Shown piece by piece: positions 1,247 through 24,200 of a DNA stretch of 64,000 nucleotides (positions are counted from its first letter, which is position 1; each line of letters opens with the position of its first letter). The notes beneath the pieces are model-generated. The model was not told the DNA's origin and did no database searches. It saw nothing but the letters and a program-made list of their open reading frames with translations. The translations under genes were made by a program, and so were the position numbers. Origin of the DNA: Minisyncoccia bacterium (GTDB taxonomy: Bacteria; Patescibacteriota; Minisyncoccia; Phycocordibacterales; UBA5272); contig JBBSJU010000001.1 in assembly GCA_038256975.1 (NCBI GenBank), forward strand, positions 59,087 through 123,086. Reading direction: 5' to 3'.

Positions 1247-4200
1247 ATGAGTGAAAAATCAGAACTTGTTACACCAAAAAAGTCGATAGCCGAAAAGGAG
1301 CTCGACGTTCTACAGTTCTGGCAAGAAAACAAGATTTTTGAAAAAAGCCTTGAAAAACCAGGAGGAGCAATTGCCAAACAAAACTTCACTTTTTATGATG
1401 GCCCACCATTTGCAACCGGCGTACCGCACCATGGGCATCTTCTCACAGGGACAATTAAAGACCTTATTCCTCGTTACAAGACGATGCAAGGTGAGTATGT
1501 GCGTCGTGTGTGGGGTTGGGATTGTCATGGTTTGCCAATTGAAAATCTTATTGAGAAAGAGTTTAATTTGAATCACAAAAAAGAAATTGAAGAGTTTGGT
1601 TTGGGTAAGTTTAATCAAGCATGTTTCGAGAGAGTGCTTCTCTATGAAAAAGATTGGAAAAAAGTAGTTCCTCGTATGGGGCGATGGGTGGACATGGAGC
1701 GTGCATACAAAACAATGGACGCGACCTATACGGAGAGTATTTGGTGGTCATGGAAGCAATTGTATGAAAAAAAGTTGGCGTACGAGGGATATAAAATAAT
1801 GCAAATATGTCCACGTTGTGAGACGACACTTGCGCAGAGTGAAGTAGCCCAAGGATATAAAGATGTGACAGATATTTCAGTGACGGCAAAGTTTGAATTA
1901 GTTGACCCGTCTGCGCAGGCAGGTGAACCAGGAACTTTTTTACTTGCGTGGACAACAACACCGTGGACGCTTCCAGGGAATACTGCGCTTGCTCTTAATA
2001 CTGAGGCAATATATGCATACGTTCAGCATGAAGGTTCACTGTATGTTGTGGCAGAAGAAAGACTTGAAAATGTTTTCAAGGAGCTTATATATGAAAAAGT
2101 AAAAACAGTGAAAGGTAAAGATCTTGTTGGTAAATCATATAAACCAGTATTTCCTTACTACATAGATACTTCACTTGATAATAAAGAAAATATATATAAA
2201 GTGTGGGCGGGAGACTTTGTGACTTTAGATACAGGAACGGGAATTGTGCACATTGCCCCAGCTTTTGGAGCTGACGACATGAATCTTGCAAAGGTAAACA
2301 AAATCCCTGTTATTCAACATGTATCAATGAGTGGGCAATTTACTAAAGAAGTTATTGATTTTCCAGAATTGTATGTAAAAAAGTTTGGAGACACACAGTC
2401 AACGGATATCGAGATTGTAAAATATCTCGCGCATCAGGGCAAATTATTTGCAAAAGAAAAACTCGTTCACTCATACCCACACTGTTGGCGATGTGACACA
2501 CCCCTTTTAAACTACGCAACTTCTTCGTGGTTTGTGGATGTTCCAAAAATTAAAGACAAGCTTATTGAGGCAAACAAGGGAGTTACGTGGGTACCGGAAC
2601 ATATTAAAGAAGGTCGTTTTGGAAAGTGGCTCGAAAATGCACACGAATGGGCGGTGTCACGATCACGTTATTGGGGCGCACCTATTCCTGTGTGGAAGTC
2701 CGAAGATGGTGATGTAAAGGTTATTGGAAGTTTTGCAGAAATGCGTGAGTACATGCCGAAAGCGAAGAACATATATATGGGTCTTCGGCATGGAGAGGCA
2801 AATTCAAATGTTACAAACACTCTTGATTCACTTGATGATCAGGAAAATCATTTGACAGAAAAGGGTAAGGAACAGATTGTGGCTGCTGCTAAAGAGCTAA
2901 AGGGTTCTGGTGTCACTAAAATAATTTCCTCACCCTTCTTGCGAACTCAAGAAACAGCTCAAATCTTGAGTGATATTCTCGGGGTTTCTTTCGAGGTTGA
3001 TGACCGATTAAAGGAAATTAATGTAGGTGTTTGGAATCGAAAGACGATAACTGATTTGTACGCACAAAACCCTGAGTTTCAAGAGAATTTAGACTATGCA
3101 CCAGATGGGGGGGAAAGTCACAGAGATTCTCGGACTCGTGCGATGAAGGTTCTATTTGACTGCGAAAAGAAATATGAAGGAGAAACAATCTTGATCGTGA
3201 CTCATGGTGGACCAATCGGTATGCTTGTGACTGGCGCACAGCTTATGAGTGATACCGAAACGCATAATTTCTTTACCAAAGACTCTCATGCCGATAAGCA
3301 TGGAAGATGTCTTGGGCACGGTAAGGTATATGATATTAACTTCAAACCATTTCCAAATCGAAATGGCGTACTTGATGTGCACCGTCCGTTTATCGACGAG
3401 GTCAAACTTACTATTGATGGAAAAGAATACACACGAGTTCCGTATGTATTCGACTGCTGGTACGAGTCGGGGTCAATGCCATATGCTGAAATTCACTATC
3501 CGTTCGAAAATGAAGTGCTGTTTAAAAATAGGTTTCCTGCAGACTGGATTGGTGAAGGTTTAGATCAGACACGCGGATGGTTTTATTCTTTGATGGTTCT
3601 AGGTGTCGCCCTTTTTGACAAAGCTCCTTACAGAAATGTGATTGTAAATGGTCTTGTAATGGCTGCCGATGGGCAAAAGGTAAGTAAGAGCAAGAAAAAC
3701 TTCACTGACCCAATGGAACTCGTAGAAAGGTATGGCGCTGATAGTATGAGACTGTATTTGGTATCAAGCCCGCTTGTACAAGCAGAAAATTCAAATTTCG
3801 TAGACAAAGATTTAGAAGAAATGCATCGAAGAATATTTGTACGTCTTGAAAATGTACTTGCATTTTATGAGATGTTTAAGGGAACAACTAGTACTCGGAT
3901 AGATCCATACAAGTCTCAGAACATGCTTGATATGTGGATGTTAAGTAGACTCAATCAAACTTTGAGTCAGACAACGTCTGGACTTGATGCAAATATGCTT
4001 GATGTGGCATCGCGGCCTTTCGACGGTTTTATTGATGACCTTTCCGTTTGGTATGTGCGTCGAAGTCGAGAACGATTAAAGGGGGACACTGGTGAGGAGG
4101 ATAGAATTGCGGCACTTTCTACCTTTGAATATGTCTTGTTGCAATTTGCAAAAATGTTTGCGCCATTTGCACCATTTGTTTCAGAGCGAGTATACAAGGC

Positions 4201-4741
4201 GGTTGGAGGAGAAAAGGAAAGCGTGCATCTTGAAAGTTGGGGAGAGGTAGGTGAGATAAAGGTTGAGATTGTTGAAGAAATGAAAAAAGTTAGAGACGTG
4301 GTTTCTAAAGGACTCGATGTTCGTGTTAAAAATGCGATTAAGGTTCGCCAGCCACTCTCACTCCTTACAACAGGAATAAAAATTGCAGAGCAGTATCTTG
4401 GTCTTATTCAAGATGAAGTGAATGTAAAACAGGTTACTTTCGATGAATCTCTTGGAGATATTGTGACACTGGATCTTTCCATTACTCCAGAATTAAAAAA
4501 AGAAGGTGATACCCGAGAACTTATTCGAGCAATACAAGATTTGCGTAAAAATAATGGACTCACACCAAATGATACACCGGCACTTTTTTACTCAGGAAAT
4601 GAAGAGGTGAAGTTGTTTGTTGAAAGTATTACGGACGCACTTACTCAGGCGTGCTTACTTTCAGAGATTACATACAAAGATTCTATAGAGAGTGAAGAAA
4701 TAAAAGTAGGTGAGTATCAGATGAAACTTAATTTGGCATAG
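1247..4741 (+). CDS. ileS: isoleucine--tRNA ligase (eukaryote-like type) carrying an internal histidine-phosphatase domain insertion
   Basis: HIGH motif (PHHGHLLTG), KMSKS motif (KVSKSKKN), CP1 editing region, WAVSRSRYWGAPIP and FDCWYESGSMPYA blocks; 1164 aa. Confidence 0.9.
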   Translation: MSEKSELVTPKKSIAEKELDVLQFWQENKIFEKSLEKPGGAIAKQNFTFYDGPPFATGVPHHGHLLTGTIKDLIPRYKTMQGEYVRRVWGWDCHGLPIENLIEKEFNLNHKKEIEEFGLGKFNQACFERVLLYEKDWKKVVPRMGRWVDMERAYKTMDATYTESIWWSWKQLYEKKLAYEGYKIMQICPRCETTLAQSEVAQGYKDVTDISVTAKFELVDPSAQAGEPGTFLLAWTTTPWTLPGNTALALNTEAIYAYVQHEGSLYVVAEERLENVFKELIYEKVKTVKGKDLVGKSYKPVFPYYIDTSLDNKENIYKVWAGDFVTLDTGTGIVHIAPAFGADDMNLAKVNKIPVIQHVSMSGQFTKEVIDFPELYVKKFGDTQSTDIEIVKYLAHQGKLFAKEKLVHSYPHCWRCDTPLLNYATSSWFVDVPKIKDKLIEANKGVTWVPEHIKEGRFGKWLENAHEWAVSRSRYWGAPIPVWKSEDGDVKVIGSFAEMREYMPKAKNIYMGLRHGEANSNVTNTLDSLDDQENHLTEKGKEQIVAAAKELKGSGVTKIISSPFLRTQETAQILSDILGVSFEVDDRLKEINVGVWNRKTITDLYAQNPEFQENLDYAPDGGESHRDSRTRAMKVLFDCEKKYEGETILIVTHGGPIGMLVTGAQLMSDTETHNFFTKDSHADKHGRCLGHGKVYDINFKPFPNRNGVLDVHRPFIDEVKLTIDGKEYTRVPYVFDCWYESGSMPYAEIHYPFENEVLFKNRFPADWIGEGLDQTRGWFYSLMVLGVALFDKAPYRNVIVNGLVMAADGQKVSKSKKNFTDPMELVERYGADSMRLYLVSSPLVQAENSNFVDKDLEEMHRRIFVRLENVLAFYEMFKGTTSTRIDPYKSQNMLDMWMLSRLNQTLSQTTSGLDANMLDVASRPFDGFIDDLSVWYVRRSRERLKGDTGEEDRIAALSTFEYVLLQFAKMFAPFAPFVSERVYKAVGGEKESVHLESWGEVGEIKVEIVEEMKKVRDVVSKGLDVRVKNAIKVRQPLSLLTTGIKIAEQYLGLIQDEVNVKQVTFDESLGDIVTLDLSITPELKKEGDTRELIRAIQDLRKNNGLTPNDTPALFYSGNEEVKLFVESITDALTQACLLSEITYKDSIESEEIKVGEYQMKLNLA
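2777..3360 (+). other. histidine phosphatase (phosphoglycerate-mutase superfamily) domain embedded in ileS, ~195 aa
   Basis: YMGLRHGEANSN (RHG catalytic motif) ... ILIVTHGGPIG (second His motif). It sits between the IleRS blocks VIGSFAEM and VLDVHRPFIDEV, where canonical IleRS has only ~40 aa. Confidence 0.6.
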
Positions 4742-19671: not shown

Positions 19672-20247
19672 ATGACTATACATAAAGAAACCTCGATCGT
19701 GCTTTGCGTCTCTGGAGCAGCTGACATTGGGCACTGTGGCATTGATGCGCGCGAAAAGGCAATAGAGCTTGGGAAAGAGATTGGTAGAAAAGGTGCGGTG
19801 TTGGTAACGGGCGCGACTACAGGGTTTCCTTTGTGGGCAGCAATGGGAACAAAGTCGGAAGGAGGCATTTCAATTGGACTTTCTCCTGCGGCCAATGTAA
19901 GAGAGCACAAAGAGGTGTATAAGCTTCCGCCTGATTATATGGACTTGGTAGTCTATACAGGGTTTGGTTTTCCTGGACGCGATTTGTTACTCATTCGTTC
20001 ATGCGAGGCGGTACTCATTGGTTGTGGACGTATTGGCACTATTCACGAGTTTACGATTGCGTTTGAGGACAATAAACCGATTGGAGTTTTGCAAGGCGAT
20101 TGGGCCACAGATGAAGTTATTCAAAATATTATTGCAAAAGGTAATCGTCCTAATCCAAAGATTGTTTTCGATACAGACCCAAAACGTTTGGTGGAAAAAG
20201 TGATAGAGCTTGTTAAAGTCGATCGTTTAGCGGCAGGGGTTATTTAG
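19672..20247 (+). CDS. TIGR00725 / LOG-like Rossmann-fold protein
   Basis: IVLCVSGAADIGHCGIDAREKAIELGKEIGRKGAVLVTGATTG matches the SLOG/LOG-family N-terminal nucleotide-binding pattern. Confidence 0.5.
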   Translation: MTIHKETSIVLCVSGAADIGHCGIDAREKAIELGKEIGRKGAVLVTGATTGFPLWAAMGTKSEGGISIGLSPAANVREHKEVYKLPPDYMDLVVYTGFGFPGRDLLLIRSCEAVLIGCGRIGTIHEFTIAFEDNKPIGVLQGDWATDEVIQNIIAKGNRPNPKIVFDTDPKRLVEKVIELVKVDRLAAGVI

Positions 20248-20318: not shown

Positions 20319-20849
20319 TTATTTTGTCTTGGTCTTGGAAAACAAATGCGACAAGATACATCCTAGTATCCCACCAACAACCACAGAGCTAAGCACACCC
20401 TCACTATGAAAATGATTCTCTTGAATTACTCCAGACCACGTTTCTGAGTGGGGTGCTGGTATGTAGTAATAGACGAACGTTACGGTCAATGTCACAAGAG
20501 CACCTATGGTGATGTAGCGCGCAAACTTTCCATAGTGCGCTTTCGCTTCTACGTACAGGAATACCATATCGAGGAGTGCATGTATTCCGTGAAAAGTGAT
20601 TTCAGATCCATTGTAGTGACTTCCATGTAGTGCATGATGGTACCACTCAATTATCATGTGTCCGACAAGGAAAAGTGACGGAAGGTATCCATGTCGTTTA
20701 TGCGCCAAAAGCGCGACGGACAGACCTCCAAGTAGCGCACCGAACATTTGCCAAGAACCAAAACCCATTTCCCAAATATGCAGGAGAAGGAATCCTCCAT
20801 AGATGATGAGAAACAACTGAAAGAACAATCGGCGATGAGTATGAGTCAT
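20319..20849 (-). CDS. His-rich integral membrane protein (possible metal-handling)
   Basis: TM helices with clustered His: HMIIEWYHHALHGSHYNGSEITFHGIHALLD. Lies in a Fur-associated neighbourhood. Confidence 0.45.
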   Translation of the reverse strand: MTHTHRRLFFQLFLIIYGGFLLLHIWEMGFGSWQMFGALLGGLSVALLAHKRHGYLPSLFLVGHMIIEWYHHALHGSHYNGSEITFHGIHALLDMVFLYVEAKAHYGKFARYITIGALVTLTVTFVYYYIPAPHSETWSGVIQENHFHSEGVLSSVVVGGILGCILSHLFSKTKTK

Positions 20850-20903
20850 TTTTTCTTTCCTAAGGAAAAGGCGTCACTGGGACGCCTTTTGAACAAGTCC
20901 CAG

Positions 20904-21275
20904 TTAATGGAAGACCTGAGCTTTTATGTCGTTGTATGCATCACTTTGCGTGAGACACATAACAGCGACAGCTCTCAAGACATTCTGAAGCCGTGAAGCG
21001 TCGGCCATGTGTTTCCCCACAGTAAACGAAATGGGGTCGCCGTCTGCTTTGTGCCACTGATTGCACACATGTGGCTTACCACCGTGAGAGTTTTCGTCAC
21101 GATGATCATCGAAGACGACAAAACGAACATGCCCATCAGGAAACGTGCATCGCACGGTTACGCATCGCGAACTTTCCTTTACTAAGAACACGAACCCTTC
21201 CTTTTGAGCAAGTTCAAGCAGGTGGTCTGCGTTTTCGGAAAGAAAGTCGCTAAACGGGTGGTTAGCAGTCAGCAT
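20904..21275 (-). CDS. hypothetical protein (GC-elevated), His/Cys-containing
   Basis: Start chosen at MLTANHPF (GGAG 9 nt upstream); overlaps the upstream gene stop by 14 nt. Contains CTFPDGHVRFVVFDDHRDENSHGGKPHVCNQWH. Confidence 0.4.
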   Translation of the reverse strand: MLTANHPFSDFLSENADHLLELAQKEGFVFLVKESSRCVTVRCTFPDGHVRFVVFDDHRDENSHGGKPHVCNQWHKADGDPISFTVGKHMADASRLQNVLRAVAVMCLTQSDAYNDIKAQVFH

Positions 21276-21612
21276 AGTTGAGTACTCCATTCTGGGTCTC
21301 GAATTGGAACAAGACAGGGTTGAAGTCTTTGGGAGGGTCAACGATCACGTCGCAACAGTTTGCGAAGACAATCCGTCTTCCGTCGAACAGTTTTTTCTCG
21401 AGAACGTGTCGCATGCCGTCGGCAACAACACGCTTGATTTGTGCCGCAAGCGGAGTTGCGGGGTCTTCCTTGTGGTGGATACCCATACTCAGACCTTTGA
21501 ACCAGGCGAATGCCAGAGGAAGGTCTTTTTGGATTGCTCCGTAGAGTGTATCTTCCAGTTGTTCGACACTCATTCCGGTGGTGTCGACGTGAGCGATTGA
21601 AGGCAAGGACAT
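21262..21612 (-). CDS. hypothetical protein (GC-elevated)
   Basis: Start chosen at MSLPSIAHV (GGAG 7 nt upstream). No recognisable domain. Confidence 0.4.
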   Translation of the reverse strand: MSLPSIAHVDTTGMSVEQLEDTLYGAIQKDLPLAFAWFKGLSMGIHHKEDPATPLAAQIKRVVADGMRHVLEKKLFDGRRIVFANCCDVIVDPPKDFNPVLFQFETQNGVLNYADC

Positions 21613-21700
21613 GTCAGTTCTCCTAAGTGATATTGGGGTTGATGATGAAGGAACATTCGAACGCTTCACCTGTATGAATACAGGTGAAGCGTATAGAACA

Positions 21701-22528
21701 TTACTTTCCAGATTTCATATCTTGAAAATCTTTAATAGTCGAGAGGTTTCCTCTTTTCTTTAACTTCTTAACTTCCTCAATAACAGAAACCATTGCTTGT
21801 TTTGTTGCATCTTTAACTTTCACATAGTCATAATTCATAACATTTTCATCAAAAGGAATCTCACCTAATATTTTCTCGCCATTCTTCGCAACAAAGTCTT
21901 TATAGAATTCATTGTCTGTAGGCTTGTTAACTACAGCAAAGCAAGGAATGAGTGACTTTCTACAAATATCTTGAATCTGCTCAAACACCTTAATGCTGTT
22001 TCTGTGTGGTTCTACAACACCAATCACGGCATCTATTCCTGCGTATAATCCGTAATTGAGCATGTCAGCTCCCGCAACACTATCTATAACGACAAAGTCA
22101 TCTTTCTCATCAAGAAGTCCAAGATAATACTTAAGTGGACTAGAGAGTCCGTGGGCACACTTACCAGAAAACATTACATCAGGTGCACCAAGACCAATGT
22201 TTATGAGTGAAACTTTGTCACTTACATATATAGCAATAGAAGATGTATACGAATCTTGGGGGTTGGTAGTAAAAGAAGGGAGAGTGTTTGTGTCTTTATT
22301 AAGTACCCCACTTACTTTTGCCACACCGACATATTCCATAAACGCTTGTTCGGTTTTGTGCATGAGTAGAGTGGTCTCGGGATTAAGCCCTAAGTTGCTC
22401 GTTAGGTCCATGTTGTGATCTGCATCAATCGCCAACACAAAAGAACCCATATCTTCTATAGTCTTAACCGCAAGCCATGATACAGAGCTTTTGCCGCTCC
22501 CCCCTTTTCCTACAAATGCCGCTTTCAT
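21701..22528 (-). CDS. CooC/MinD-family P-loop ATPase
   Basis: Deviant Walker A FVGKGGSGKSS at the N-terminus, ParA/MinD/CooC fold; 275 aa. Confidence 0.75.
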   Translation of the reverse strand: MKAAFVGKGGSGKSSVSWLAVKTIEDMGSFVLAIDADHNMDLTSNLGLNPETTLLMHKTEQAFMEYVGVAKVSGVLNKDTNTLPSFTTNPQDSYTSSIAIYVSDKVSLINIGLGAPDVMFSGKCAHGLSSPLKYYLGLLDEKDDFVVIDSVAGADMLNYGLYAGIDAVIGVVEPHRNSIKVFEQIQDICRKSLIPCFAVVNKPTDNEFYKDFVAKNGEKILGEIPFDENVMNYDYVKVKDATKQAMVSVIEEVKKLKKRGNLSTIKDFQDMKSGK

Positions 22529-22530
22529 AT

Positions 22531-22551
22531 AAACGCAATAGTATTGCGTTT
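22531..22551. promoter_or_regulatory. perfect 10-1-10 palindrome, candidate Fur-family operator in a divergent promoter region
   Basis: AAACGCAATA g TATTGCGTTT lies between the divergent CooC-like gene and the fur-family gene. Confidence 0.5.
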
Positions 22552-22615
22552 ATAATACTAACTTAGATACAATATTATTGCAATACGGTTGCATTAATGG
22601 CATACTAATGCAACT

Positions 22616-23044
22616 ATGAAATCGAAAGACTTAACCTTCTGTGAAGATATTCTCAAAGGACATAAGTTTCGGGTGACTCCAGGAAGGGTGGCCCTTCTTC
22701 TTTTTTTAAAACACAAAGAAAAGCCCCTTTCTGTTCCTGACATACAAAAACAAATGCCGTACTCAATGGATAAGGTGACCCTTTATCGCGCTCTTGAGGA
22801 TTTTGCTCAGTCTAAAATTGTTGCAAAGATTAGTCTGCGAGATGCGGCGACATACTATGAGTTTATTCACGCTAACCATCACCATCATCATGTTGTGTGT
22901 GAAAAGTGCGGAAAAATCGAAGATATTGAAAGTTGCAATCAAGATTCTCTTCAAAAAGAAATCCTTAAGTCTGCAAAAAGTTTTAAAATTATCAATTCTC
23001 ACTCATTGGAATTCTTCGGTATTTGTAAAGAGTGTGATAAATAA
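22616..23044 (+). CDS. fur: Fur family transcriptional regulator (Fur/Zur/PerR)
   Basis: Winged-helix N-terminus; HHHHH...CEKCGKIEDIE...CKECDK metal-binding motifs; 142 aa. Confidence 0.8.
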   Translation: MKSKDLTFCEDILKGHKFRVTPGRVALLLFLKHKEKPLSVPDIQKQMPYSMDKVTLYRALEDFAQSKIVAKISLRDAATYYEFIHANHHHHHVVCEKCGKIEDIESCNQDSLQKEILKSAKSFKIINSHSLEFFGICKECDK

Positions 23045-23066
23045 ATATTTAGATATACTACTTAGT

Positions 23067-24200
23067 ATGATGAACGTAAAGAAAGTTTTAATAACATCTC
23101 TTTTTACAACACTACTTTTACCACTACTTTCATATGCGCAAGAAACTATTTTAGTCCCAGGCGTTGAGGTTTTTCAAAAAGCAAAAGTACTTACAGTAGA
23201 GAGTCAAGACGTAACTACGATTCTCGGAACACAGACCGTGGTACCAACACAAACACTTAAAGTTGAAATCCTTGAGGGGGTCCATGTGGGGAAAGTGGTT
23301 ACTTTTGAAAATGATTACATTCAGCTTTCGGCAGGTGATAGTTTCTATGCTCGGTACCAAAAAGATTCTTTGAGTGGCGATGAGTATTGGTCAGTGTCTA
23401 GTCCGTATAGGTTGGATGTTCTCGGCTGGCTTTTAATTGCTTTTATCGTGCTCATTGGCCTCTTTGGAGGTATTCAAGGGGTGCGGGGTTTTGCTAGTCT
23501 TATTGGGAGCTTGTTTCTCATATTTTACATTCTCGTACCTGGAATCTATGGCGGATACAATGCTGTGGCCATAAGCATTACAGTTGCTTCTCTTATCATT
23601 ATTGTTGGATCGTACATTACCCATGGTTTCAATAGAACCACCACAGCTGCTATTTTCGGGATGATTTTGACGGTCATTTTTACTGGACTTGTTGCGTACT
23701 ATATAGTCGATGTCGCACACCTGAGTGGATATGACAGTGAGGAGAGTATGTTTCTGAACCTAAACACACAAGGAAGTATCGATATGGTTGGCCTTTTGTT
23801 TGGTGGAATTATGATCGGACTTCTTGGTGTTCTGTACGATATTGCAATCGGGCAAGCCGTTGCTATAGAGGAACTATTTCGAGCGGGGAGACAATTGACG
23901 CGCAAAGAAGTTTACAAACGGGGAATACGGATTGGTAGAGAGCACATTGGTGCATTGGTTAACACGCTTGCGATTGCATATGTTGGTGCATCTTTACCGC
24001 TTCTTTTGCTCATGCAAAATTCGACGACAGGGATCCTTTTTATTATAAACAGTGAGATTTTTGCTACTGAAATCGTACGTATACTAATTGGAAGCATAGG
24101 GCTCATACTTGCTGTACCCATCACAACACTCATTGCTTCGCATATGTTGTATGGAAAAGAAACGCCATTTCAAAAATCTACTCATAATCATACACACTAG
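23067..24200 (+). CDS. YibE/F-like polytopic membrane protein
   Basis: Signal/TM, extracytoplasmic segment, then ~7 TM helices; His-rich tail KSTHNHTH. Start taken at MMNVKKV after the fur stop. Confidence 0.55.
   Translation: MMNVKKVLITSLFTTLLLPLLSYAQETILVPGVEVFQKAKVLTVESQDVTTILGTQTVVPTQTLKVEILEGVHVGKVVTFENDYIQLSAGDSFYARYQKDSLSGDEYWSVSSPYRLDVLGWLLIAFIVLIGLFGGIQGVRGFASLIGSLFLIFYILVPGIYGGYNAVAISITVASLIIIVGSYITHGFNRTTTAAIFGMILTVIFTGLVAYYIVDVAHLSGYDSEESMFLNLNTQGSIDMVGLLFGGIMIGLLGVLYDIAIGQAVAIEELFRAGRQLTRKEVYKRGIRIGREHIGALVNTLAIAYVGASLPLLLLMQNSTTGILFIINSEIFATEIVRILIGSIGLILAVPITTLIASHMLYGKETPFQKSTHNHTH

Follow-up and report, generated by a model that had tools for sequence, protein, structure and literature searches.

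A putative zinc-starvation locus with a CooC-like Cys-x-His ATPase and a Zur-box-type operator in a Patescibacteria genome

The locus described here lies at positions 20319–24200 of a 64-kb window (the whole stretch of DNA that was analysed, to which all coordinates refer) from the genome of an ultra-small bacterium of the Patescibacteria. It consists of six genes arranged as two divergent groups, one led by a gene for a Fur-family regulator and the other by a gene for a CooC-like ATPase. It is best read as the core of a Zur-type regulon by which a Paceibacterota-like bacterium responds to zinc starvation, and in which the ATPase and a small cysteine-containing protein, P116, would hand zinc on; the probability of this reading was put at about 0.6. 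The reading was drawn from the anatomy of the locus, the conservation of an operator and of gene order in related genomes, the invariance of certain motifs and a recurrent association with zinc genes. Repressor binding, the identity of the metal, ATP-driven metal transfer and the roles of the partner proteins are predicted on this basis.

All six genes named in an initial annotation, which had seen here a putative metal-handling module, were present where it had placed them, and its assignments of a Fur-family protein, a YibE/F protein and a CooC/MinD-type ATPase were backed by Pfam (FUR, YibE_F and CbiA/MinD-type respectively). In the rightward group, the fur-family gene is followed after a gap of 22 nucleotides (nt) by yibE/F, and the two are probably co-transcribed. 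The leftward group runs from the ATPase gene through the genes for P116 and P123, which overlap by 14 nt, to a short hairpin and the gene for a His-rich membrane protein. The nearest relatives of all proteins of the module belonged to metagenome-assembled genomes of Candidatus Paceibacterota/Pacebacteria. The features were as follows (aa, amino acids):

20319–20849, minus strand: His-rich polytopic membrane protein, 176 aa, of a family without a name; homologues 3' of the ATPase operon; invariant His, Glu and Asp
20866–20890, minus strand: 10-bp hairpin between the P123 and membrane-protein genes, weakly terminator-like, read from the sequence
20904–21275, minus strand: P123, a 123-aa orphan with an invariant Cys/His cluster
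21262–21612, minus strand: P116, a 116-aa putative ATPase partner with clustered cysteines
21652–21702, minus strand: RNA hairpin in the ATPase-P116 intercistronic gap, conserved and with covariation across 10 loci
21701–22528, minus strand: CooC-like MinD/SIMIBI ATPase, 275 aa (Pfam CbiA, 6e-9); CooC1 is its best solved relative
22528–22554, no strand: operator 1, a perfect 13-1-13 palindrome with the core GCAATAgTATTGC at 22535–22547; putative Zur-box-type site
22569–22592, no strand: operator 2, close to the fur start: the degenerate boxes ACAATAtTATTGC and GCAATAcGGTTGC, which overlap
22616–23044, plus strand: Fur-family repressor, 142 aa, read as Zur-type (Pfam FUR; HHHHH and two CxxC pairs)
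23067–24200, plus strand: YibE/F-family membrane protein, 377 aa, with a C-terminal HNHTH (Pfam YibE_F)

A palindrome had been reported between the fur-family gene and the leftward group as a perfect 10-1-10 repeat. It is real, but its length was underestimated; TATAAACGCAATA g TATTGCGTTTATA is a perfect 13-1-13 inverted repeat of 27 bp, which abuts the start codon of the ATPase gene (CAT at 22526–22528). No match to it occurred in 100 dinucleotide-preserving shuffles of the window, even when up to 3 mismatches were allowed. Two more copies of its core (GCAA-N5-TTGC), degenerate and overlapping, were located at 22569–22581 and 22580–22592, that is, within the same 87-bp intergenic region. There was no recognisable Shine-Dalgarno sequence before the ATPase gene or fur (22529–22615), while in most related loci the proximal box ended 4–8 nt before the ATPase ATG; leaderless transcripts are therefore possible, perhaps with a -10 element within the operator.

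Related loci were fetched around homologues of P123 and the ATPase, along with 80 more, using one genome per species, and operator statistics were compiled for 81 non-redundant loci. The core, as GCRA-N5-TYGC, was matched 87 times in the 121 bp 5' of the ATPase start (9.8 kb summed) against 113 times in the other 772 kb, which is an approximately 60-fold enrichment upstream of orthologous ATPase genes. At least one box was kept at this orthologous position in 56 of the 81 loci, with preferred positions at -17 and -62 from the ATPase start codon; a distal box some 44–45 bp from the proximal box was the rule. The search for further copies proposed in the initial annotation thus found the core again within the intergenic region and at the orthologous position in related loci. 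The box was conserved alongside ATPases with as little as 31% identity, and where a ZIP-like gene stood between fur and the ATPase gene, each of the two intergenic regions, fur|ZIP and ZIP|ATPase, had a box. The consensus was aaAYGCAA-nTnAn-TTGCRTtt, which the site in the window fits. This conserved box was interpreted as the phylogenetic footprint of an operator.

Inverted repeats of 15 bp with conserved outer bases have the geometry of the 7-1-7 sites of Bacillus Fur, PerR and Zur. Comparison with Fur, Zur and PerR boxes showed the core to be of the same type as the Zur box ATGCAACnnnGTTGCAT, predicted upstream of znuABC-zur in two Desulfovibrio genomes (Rodionov et al., PMC545781), and several related loci carried GCAACTAAGTTGC exactly, which is again this motif type. 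Like the Desulfovibrio box and the 7-1-7 operators of Bacillus subtilis, the sites are inverted repeats of 15–17 bp with the conserved bases outermost. They differ in the half-site, which is TGCAA(n) here as against TGATAAT, TTATAAT or TCGTAAT in B. subtilis; also, unlike the compared 7-1-7 operators, the symmetry in this genome reaches 13-1-13 and two boxes stand about 45 bp apart at a divergent promoter pair. Rhizobial Mur boxes may resemble TGCAA...TTGCA as well, a similarity on which no argument here is built.

An exact-pattern scan of metagenomes with the 21-bp box AAAYGCAANNNNNTTGCRTTT returned at least 120 stretches. Among the matches listed, the box lay within 140 bp of COG0523 genes in at least five loci, upstream of ZnuA-ABC transporter operons in at least three (13–440 bp from znuA), at or near the start of a ZIP gene in one, and at or near TonB-dependent receptors in two; fur-family genes were also represented. 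Pfam confirmed the identity of genes flanking the box (ZnuA, 2e-72; cobW plus CobW_C; Zip, 74.6 bits). In one of the COG0523 loci (L118), genes of the DksA type and for a GTP cyclohydrolase II (RibA-like) lay alongside the box. At least five of the short contigs contained two or three exact 21-bp boxes, a few hundred bases apart.

The genes surrounding the ATPase were counted in 79 ATPase-anchored loci. A fur-family gene was adjacent in 58 of these, yibE/F lay within 3 kb in 42 and followed fur in about half, and ZIP-like genes were present in 21. In six loci a znuACB operon (znuA/znuB) was directly downstream of fur, the slot held by yibE/F in the window. A COG0523 gene occurred within the 5-kb flanks of the ATPase in 12 loci and was directly upstream on the same strand in six, one of these, from Bdellovibrionales, having the gene order fur - COG0523 - ATPase. 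Found with the ATPase homologue in Calothrix and Dulcicalothrix were a weak CobW-like gene and a fur-family gene, together with genes for an Asp-rich HemB of the zinc-independent type and a threonyl-tRNA synthetase (ThrRS); paralogues of HemB and ThrRS, and COG0523 proteins, are hallmarks of Zur regulons (PMC2770081; PMC10957091). The ATPase subfamily was thus found beside fur-family, COG0523, ZIP or ZnuABC genes in Patescibacteria, Bdellovibrionales and cyanobacteria, and the order suggested for this locus, yibE/F<-fur | ATPase->Cys-protein, is kept in related genomes across the Patescibacteria.

The genomes of heterocystous cyanobacteria among the loci (L049, L051 and L054) had two paralogous Cys-x-His ATPases side by side, one of the C-S-H type (280 aa) and the other of the C-Y/F-H type (333–340 aa); in Calothrix, the first of these, C-S-H, overlapped the start of the Asp-rich hemB. 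Palindromes resembling Fur boxes occurred upstream of cyanobacterial ATPases (ATAATAATGATTATCAT at L054 4889–4905; AGAATAATAATTATTTT at L051 4892–4908).

The regulator matched the Fur family (PF01475) over residues 18–133 with 75 bits (E = 5.3e-21; cut-off 23), and the HHHHH and CxxC motifs ascribed to it were present. Its structural zinc site, C95-x-x-C98 plus C137-x-x-C140, was conserved in 53–56 of 56 regulators; other conserved residues were E82, H90-92, E102 and H129. The PerR site (His37, Asp85, His91, His93, Asp104) was reproduced in part: equivalents of His91, His93 and Asp104 were present, while Glu82 stood at Asp85 and the His37 ligand position was occupied by Pro37 (51 of 56 regulators). 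The regulator was read as most likely Zur-type, with the operator predicted to bind it in a Zn(II)-dependent manner. Among the metals that had been suggested (Ni, Zn or Co), box type and zinc-gene context favour zinc; nickel is not favoured. In metagenome contigs of unrelated origin this box stands directly before znuACB, ZIP, fur-family and COG0523 genes, and the metal is therefore most probably zinc and not nickel.

The only match to the ATPase among PDB sequences was CooC1 of Carboxydothermus hydrogenoformans (3kje; E = 1.7e-10), aligned over residues 1–250. The protein has a deviant Walker A motif (GKGGSGKS, residues 7–14), and its K-C124-A-H126-G aligned with the Q-C-Y-C-R of CooC1, whose Cys-x-Cys binds metal at the dimer interface. 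The assignment to the CooC/MinD type therefore stands, with a metal-type motif conserved at the CooC metal site. C124 and H126 were invariant, and since C-x-H occurred in 90 of 93 homologues (the three exceptions being truncated open reading frames), the proteins were considered a distinct Cys-x-His subfamily, not CooC proper. ATPase reading frames from one Peribacteria and one Absconditabacteria locus, truncated under translation table 11 (111–128 aa), were left out of this scoring; UGA is recoded in these lineages, which fits the truncation. Pfam found no cobW domain in the ATPase, the COG0523 genes of other loci being separate neighbours. No gene of carbon monoxide dehydrogenase/acetyl-CoA synthase (CODH/ACS) was seen among the Pfam-labelled genes of six examined loci, nor in the Calothrix and Bdellovibrionales loci.

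Three known systems invite comparison. With CooC (CooC1, PDB 3KJE-3KJI), which serves Ni insertion for CO dehydrogenase, the ATPase shares the MinD-type P-loop fold, the deviant Walker A and a metal motif in the same loop; it differs in having Cys-x-His in place of Cys-x-Cys, in lacking CooT and CooJ, and in that its gene is under a putative Fur-family operator and is linked to zinc genes, with no CODH/ACS gene seen in the loci examined. The COG0523 G3E GTPases (YciC/ZagA, ZigA and Zng1 type) are likewise P-loop NTPases under Fur-family/Zur control, with Cys-rich metal motifs and expression in zinc limitation; their genes were those found directly upstream of the ATPase in six loci, and share its operator in metagenomes (PMC2770081 for COG0523). 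They are, however, G3E GTPases with CobW_C as opposed to MinD/CooC-type ATPases, and carry CxCC inside the NTPase; in the present family the ATPase itself is limited to C-x-H, and the cysteine cluster belongs to a distinct partner protein. The ArsA-ArsD(-ArsB) system is an analogue by architecture: its SIMIBI-class ATPase has thiol ligands for the metal(loid), its small chaperone has three Cys, two of them vicinal, and membrane carriers lie close by. No similarity to it was detected in the present module, either in sequence or in fold, and the ars system is ArsR-regulated and concerned with efflux and detoxification, as against a Fur-family repressor and a link with starvation here.

Directly downstream of the ATPase gene, 34 open reading frames in the locus set belonged to the P116 family. 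Its members had a conserved N-terminal MS[FL]PS, an F-x-N-C-C strand and a (A/S/I)-D-C at the C-terminal end; N-C-C was found in nearly all of them and the terminal Cys in all. These genes kept their place directly 3' of the ATPase even where the ATPase was only 31–45% identical. In loci without a P116 homologue, another clustered-Cys protein occupied the same slot (with FCDCGCG, ICCNGC, GHCCD, LCSCG or GCSCC), such that a CC/CxC protein was directly downstream of the ATPase in 62 of 79 loci (78%), compared with 2.8% of other annotated genes. P123 has invariant C42, H57, H63, H68, C70, N71-Q72-W73 and C106, and is narrowly distributed, in about 16 loci of the locus set and only six clusters (E ≤ 1e-10) among 1.84 billion representative proteins; it pairs with P116 or with a GHCCD protein of 188–218 aa. 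Both small proteins had been proposed as partners of the ATPase. This view fits the P116 family as a probable general partner, but P123 is a lineage-specific addition.

Neither P116 nor P123, nor the His-rich membrane protein, matched anything in Pfam, NCBIfam, PADLOC or PHROGs, and profiles of P116 and P123 gave only chance-level matches to PDB sequences; homologues of unrelated known function, which would have told against a metallochaperone role, did not appear in these searches. AlphaFold models were confident (predicted local distance difference test, pLDDT, 92 and 90), and no relative of either was detected by sequence or fold. An apparent resemblance of P123 to an E2/UBC-like fold was not upheld by a second method. 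Downstream proteins of 254–260 aa that suggested a P116-P123 fusion proved to be either the His-rich membrane protein, its reading frame called too long, or different proteins with Cys clusters. A defence-system or phage origin was also discarded: there was no PADLOC match, and the sole PHROG match was weak, ParA-like and to the ATPase. The P116 and P123 genes had a G+C content about 10 points above that of their neighbours (0.49–0.51 against 0.37–0.39 in the window), and most related genomes showed a comparable difference; amino-acid composition, expression level and past transfer are candidate causes.

The two membrane proteins were as the initial annotation had described them, namely a protein with a clustered-His segment in the leftward group and a YibE/F-like polytopic protein ending in HNHTH downstream of fur. 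The His-rich protein had homologues after the ATPase operon in seven loci, with invariant His, Glu and Asp in or near predicted helices (AHK.HG..PS, HM..EW..HA.HG.HY and F.G.HA..D..FL..EA..H); this residue pattern would suit a metal permease, for which it is a candidate. YibE/F matched PF07907 over profile positions 2–240 of 241 (224.6 bits, E = 1.8e-66), and is a candidate zinc transporter because znuACB takes the same slot after fur in six other loci. A search of the literature on YibE/F function returned nothing relevant.

Two hairpins were identified in the leftward group. The terminator annotated before the His-rich membrane gene does correspond to a hairpin (20866–20890, 10 bp), but it is without a clean T-run and was not called by a terminator scan. 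The longer hairpin, at 21652–21702, separates the stop codon of the ATPase gene from the start of P116. Of its 20 predicted pairs, 9 showed compensatory changes across 10 loci; it has no U-tract after it and no match in Rfam, and may serve in attenuation, processing or stabilisation of the transcript. A riboswitch or known RNA in the region was rejected, Rfam giving nothing above noise.

In the mechanism proposed, zinc-loaded Fur-family repressor would bind the 15-bp inverted repeats TGCAA-N5-TTGCA in the 87-bp divergent promoter region, and would repress both its own fur-yibE/F operon and the leftward operon, which comprises the ATPase, P116 and P123 genes and probably extends to that for the His-rich membrane protein. 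At low zinc both divergent units would be expressed, supplying the regulator, the candidate permeases (YibE/F, the His-rich protein, plus ZIP or ZnuABC where present) and the ATPase with its cysteine partner. In the ATPase dimer, Cys124 and His126 (Cys-x-His) from each subunit would together make up a Cys2His2 site at the interface, the place at which CooC1 uses Cys-x-Cys to bind Ni/Zn; such a site would suit zinc. Scarce zinc would be taken up by the ATPase and passed to clients or along a hand-off chain, the direction being set by ATP hydrolysis; CooC, COG0523 and ArsD-ArsA operate comparably. P116, by virtue of its vicinal Cys pair and C-terminal Cys, would be a dedicated metal-binding partner (donor, acceptor or adaptor), and P123, with its Cys/His cluster, a lineage-specific accessory. 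A broader proposal is offered more tentatively: that Cys-x-His ATPases and their clustered-Cys partners could be an unrecognised class of ATP-driven zinc metallochaperones, distinct from the GTP-driven COG0523 proteins, within the Zur regulons of Patescibacteria, Bdellovibrionales and heterocystous cyanobacteria, with YibE/F and the His-rich protein as new zinc permeases.

Several points weigh against a Zur-type zinc regulon. The entire case is one of comparative genomics, and within it a metallochaperone set of ATPase and small proteins, with metal binding and ATPase contact by P116 and P123, is suggested by context and motifs. The full palindrome is unique in the window; the remaining core matches fall outside the 87-bp intergenic region, the one looked at (2439) sits within ileS and is probably there by chance, and the total over the window was not above that of shuffles. 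Within the window, the module has no neighbouring gene for ZIP, ZnuABC or COG0523, and the hairpin at 21652–21702 could uncouple expression of the ATPase and P116. The regulator cannot be subtyped from its sequence: the NCBIfam models for Fur, PerR and Zur all scored far below cut-off, that for Zur (NF008646) reaching 31.7 bits against 167 and those for Fur and PerR scoring higher, although this test is uninformative in these lineages because regulators adjoining COG0523 genes likewise fell far below the cut-offs. The regulator is also without the Cys ligand typical of the sensory sites of characterised Zur proteins, its best solved relative is PerR of B. subtilis (3.6e-17), and its Asp aligns with PerR Asp104. 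In 10 loci ahpC lies in the fur operon, which would also fit a peroxide-sensing regulator. ZIP and ZnuA-type transporters are not strictly zinc-specific and can carry Mn or Fe, and some variants of the partner protein have C-x-C-G-C-G, recalling A-type Fe-S carriers. Taken together, these features would accommodate a PerR/Fur/Mur-type sensor of peroxide, iron or manganese, with the ATPase and Cys proteins engaged in Fe-S carriage or in the repair of oxidised metal centres after the manner of Mrp/NBP35. This was judged unlikely. The His37 ligand needed by PerR and Fur is the position taken by Pro; the operator equals a predicted Zur box and, among the matches listed, fronts COG0523, DksA-type and GTP cyclohydrolase II (RibA-like) genes, which are Zur-regulon hallmarks (PMC2770081); and none of the loci showed a suf, isc, feo, mntH or ferritin gene. 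Nor does ahpC exclude Zur, because the Zur regulon of Anabaena is reported to include proteins that protect against reactive oxygen species, which is a precedent for a Zur-controlled peroxiredoxin (PMC10957091).

Other explanations concern the role of the ATPase or its partners. A slightly better prospect than the peroxide or iron sensor, albeit still an unlikely one, is that the regulon stays as described but the ATPase energises or gates a membrane transporter as ArsA does ArsB, docking on the His-rich protein, ZIP or YibE/F with P116 in the place of ArsD, so that the system would be an ATP-assisted zinc importer and not a cytosolic insertase. Membrane proteins are always near (YibE/F in 42, ZIP-like in 21 and His-rich in 6 of the 79 loci), in one locus (L010) the gene for the His-rich protein comes immediately after that for the ATPase, with a box of its own, and the three conserved Cys of P116, including a vicinal pair, are ArsD-like. 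However, no one membrane protein consistently co-occurs with the ATPase, which is often paired with a soluble COG0523 GTPase, adjoins soluble enzymes in cyanobacteria and showed no detectable membrane-docking feature. It is improbable that P116 and P123 are passengers, a separate two-gene cassette of unrelated function that settled 3' of the ATPase in this lineage. Their raised G+C in most genomes, the conserved hairpin that sets them apart from the ATPase gene and the confinement of P123 to few clusters would be explained in this way; against this, P116-family genes directly follow even highly divergent ATPases, a different clustered-Cys protein fills the same slot elsewhere, P116 and P123 have diverged in step with the ATPase, and PADLOC and PHROGs have no match for either. 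The least probable explanation, for which very little credence remains, makes the ATPase a positioning protein of the ParA/MinD type, served by P116 and P123 as small adaptors or DNA-binding factors, and its place beside fur a coincidence. The deviant Walker A, a weak ParA-like PHROG match (8e-6) and weak matches to MinD and ParA models point this way, but those models were far below their cut-offs (minD_arch, 26 bits against about 202; minD_bact, 14 against 213; ParA_partition, 17 against 180), and further points against it are an invariant C-x-H at the CooC metal site, a fur-family link in 58 of 79 loci, links to COG0523, ZIP or ZnuABC across phyla, and a Zur-type operator at the ATPase promoter.

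Two further genes in the window were observed outside the module. Directly to its left, at 19672–20247 (plus strand), is a SLOG cluster4/LOG-like gene (PF18306, E = 2e-30), convergent to the His-rich membrane gene and with no indication of regulon membership. At 1247–4741 (plus strand), an isoleucyl-tRNA synthetase of 1164 aa has an inserted His_Phos_1 (PGAM-like) domain at residues 513–672 (E = 1.7e-35), an insertion that interrupts the catalytic domain of this class I enzyme.

Zur regulons, Zur boxes of the present type and metallochaperone NTPases within such regulons are already known. A search of the literature on CooC-like genes in Patescibacteria or in Zur regulons returned nothing relevant, and no description was found of the Cys-x-His CooC-like subfamily as a recurrent Zur-regulon member across three phyla, of its clustered-Cys partner, of the orphan P123, or of YibE/F and the new His-rich membrane family as placed in a Zur regulon. 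The locus is a testable lead rather than a surprise of principle, and points to an undescribed kind of zinc-handling machinery. The allocation of zinc in starvation is understood almost only through COG0523 GTPases, and a second NTPase family would be a new handle on metalation. For the widespread YibE/F family, and for several 'hypothetical' families under strong conservation in Patescibacteria, the locus would also provide a first functional hypothesis that can be tested; it would further offer a well-defined candidate operator and regulon for a phylum whose transcriptional regulation is barely charted. If the broader proposal is true, the Cys-x-His ATPase system would be a main route by which scarce zinc is allocated in these ultra-small bacteria.

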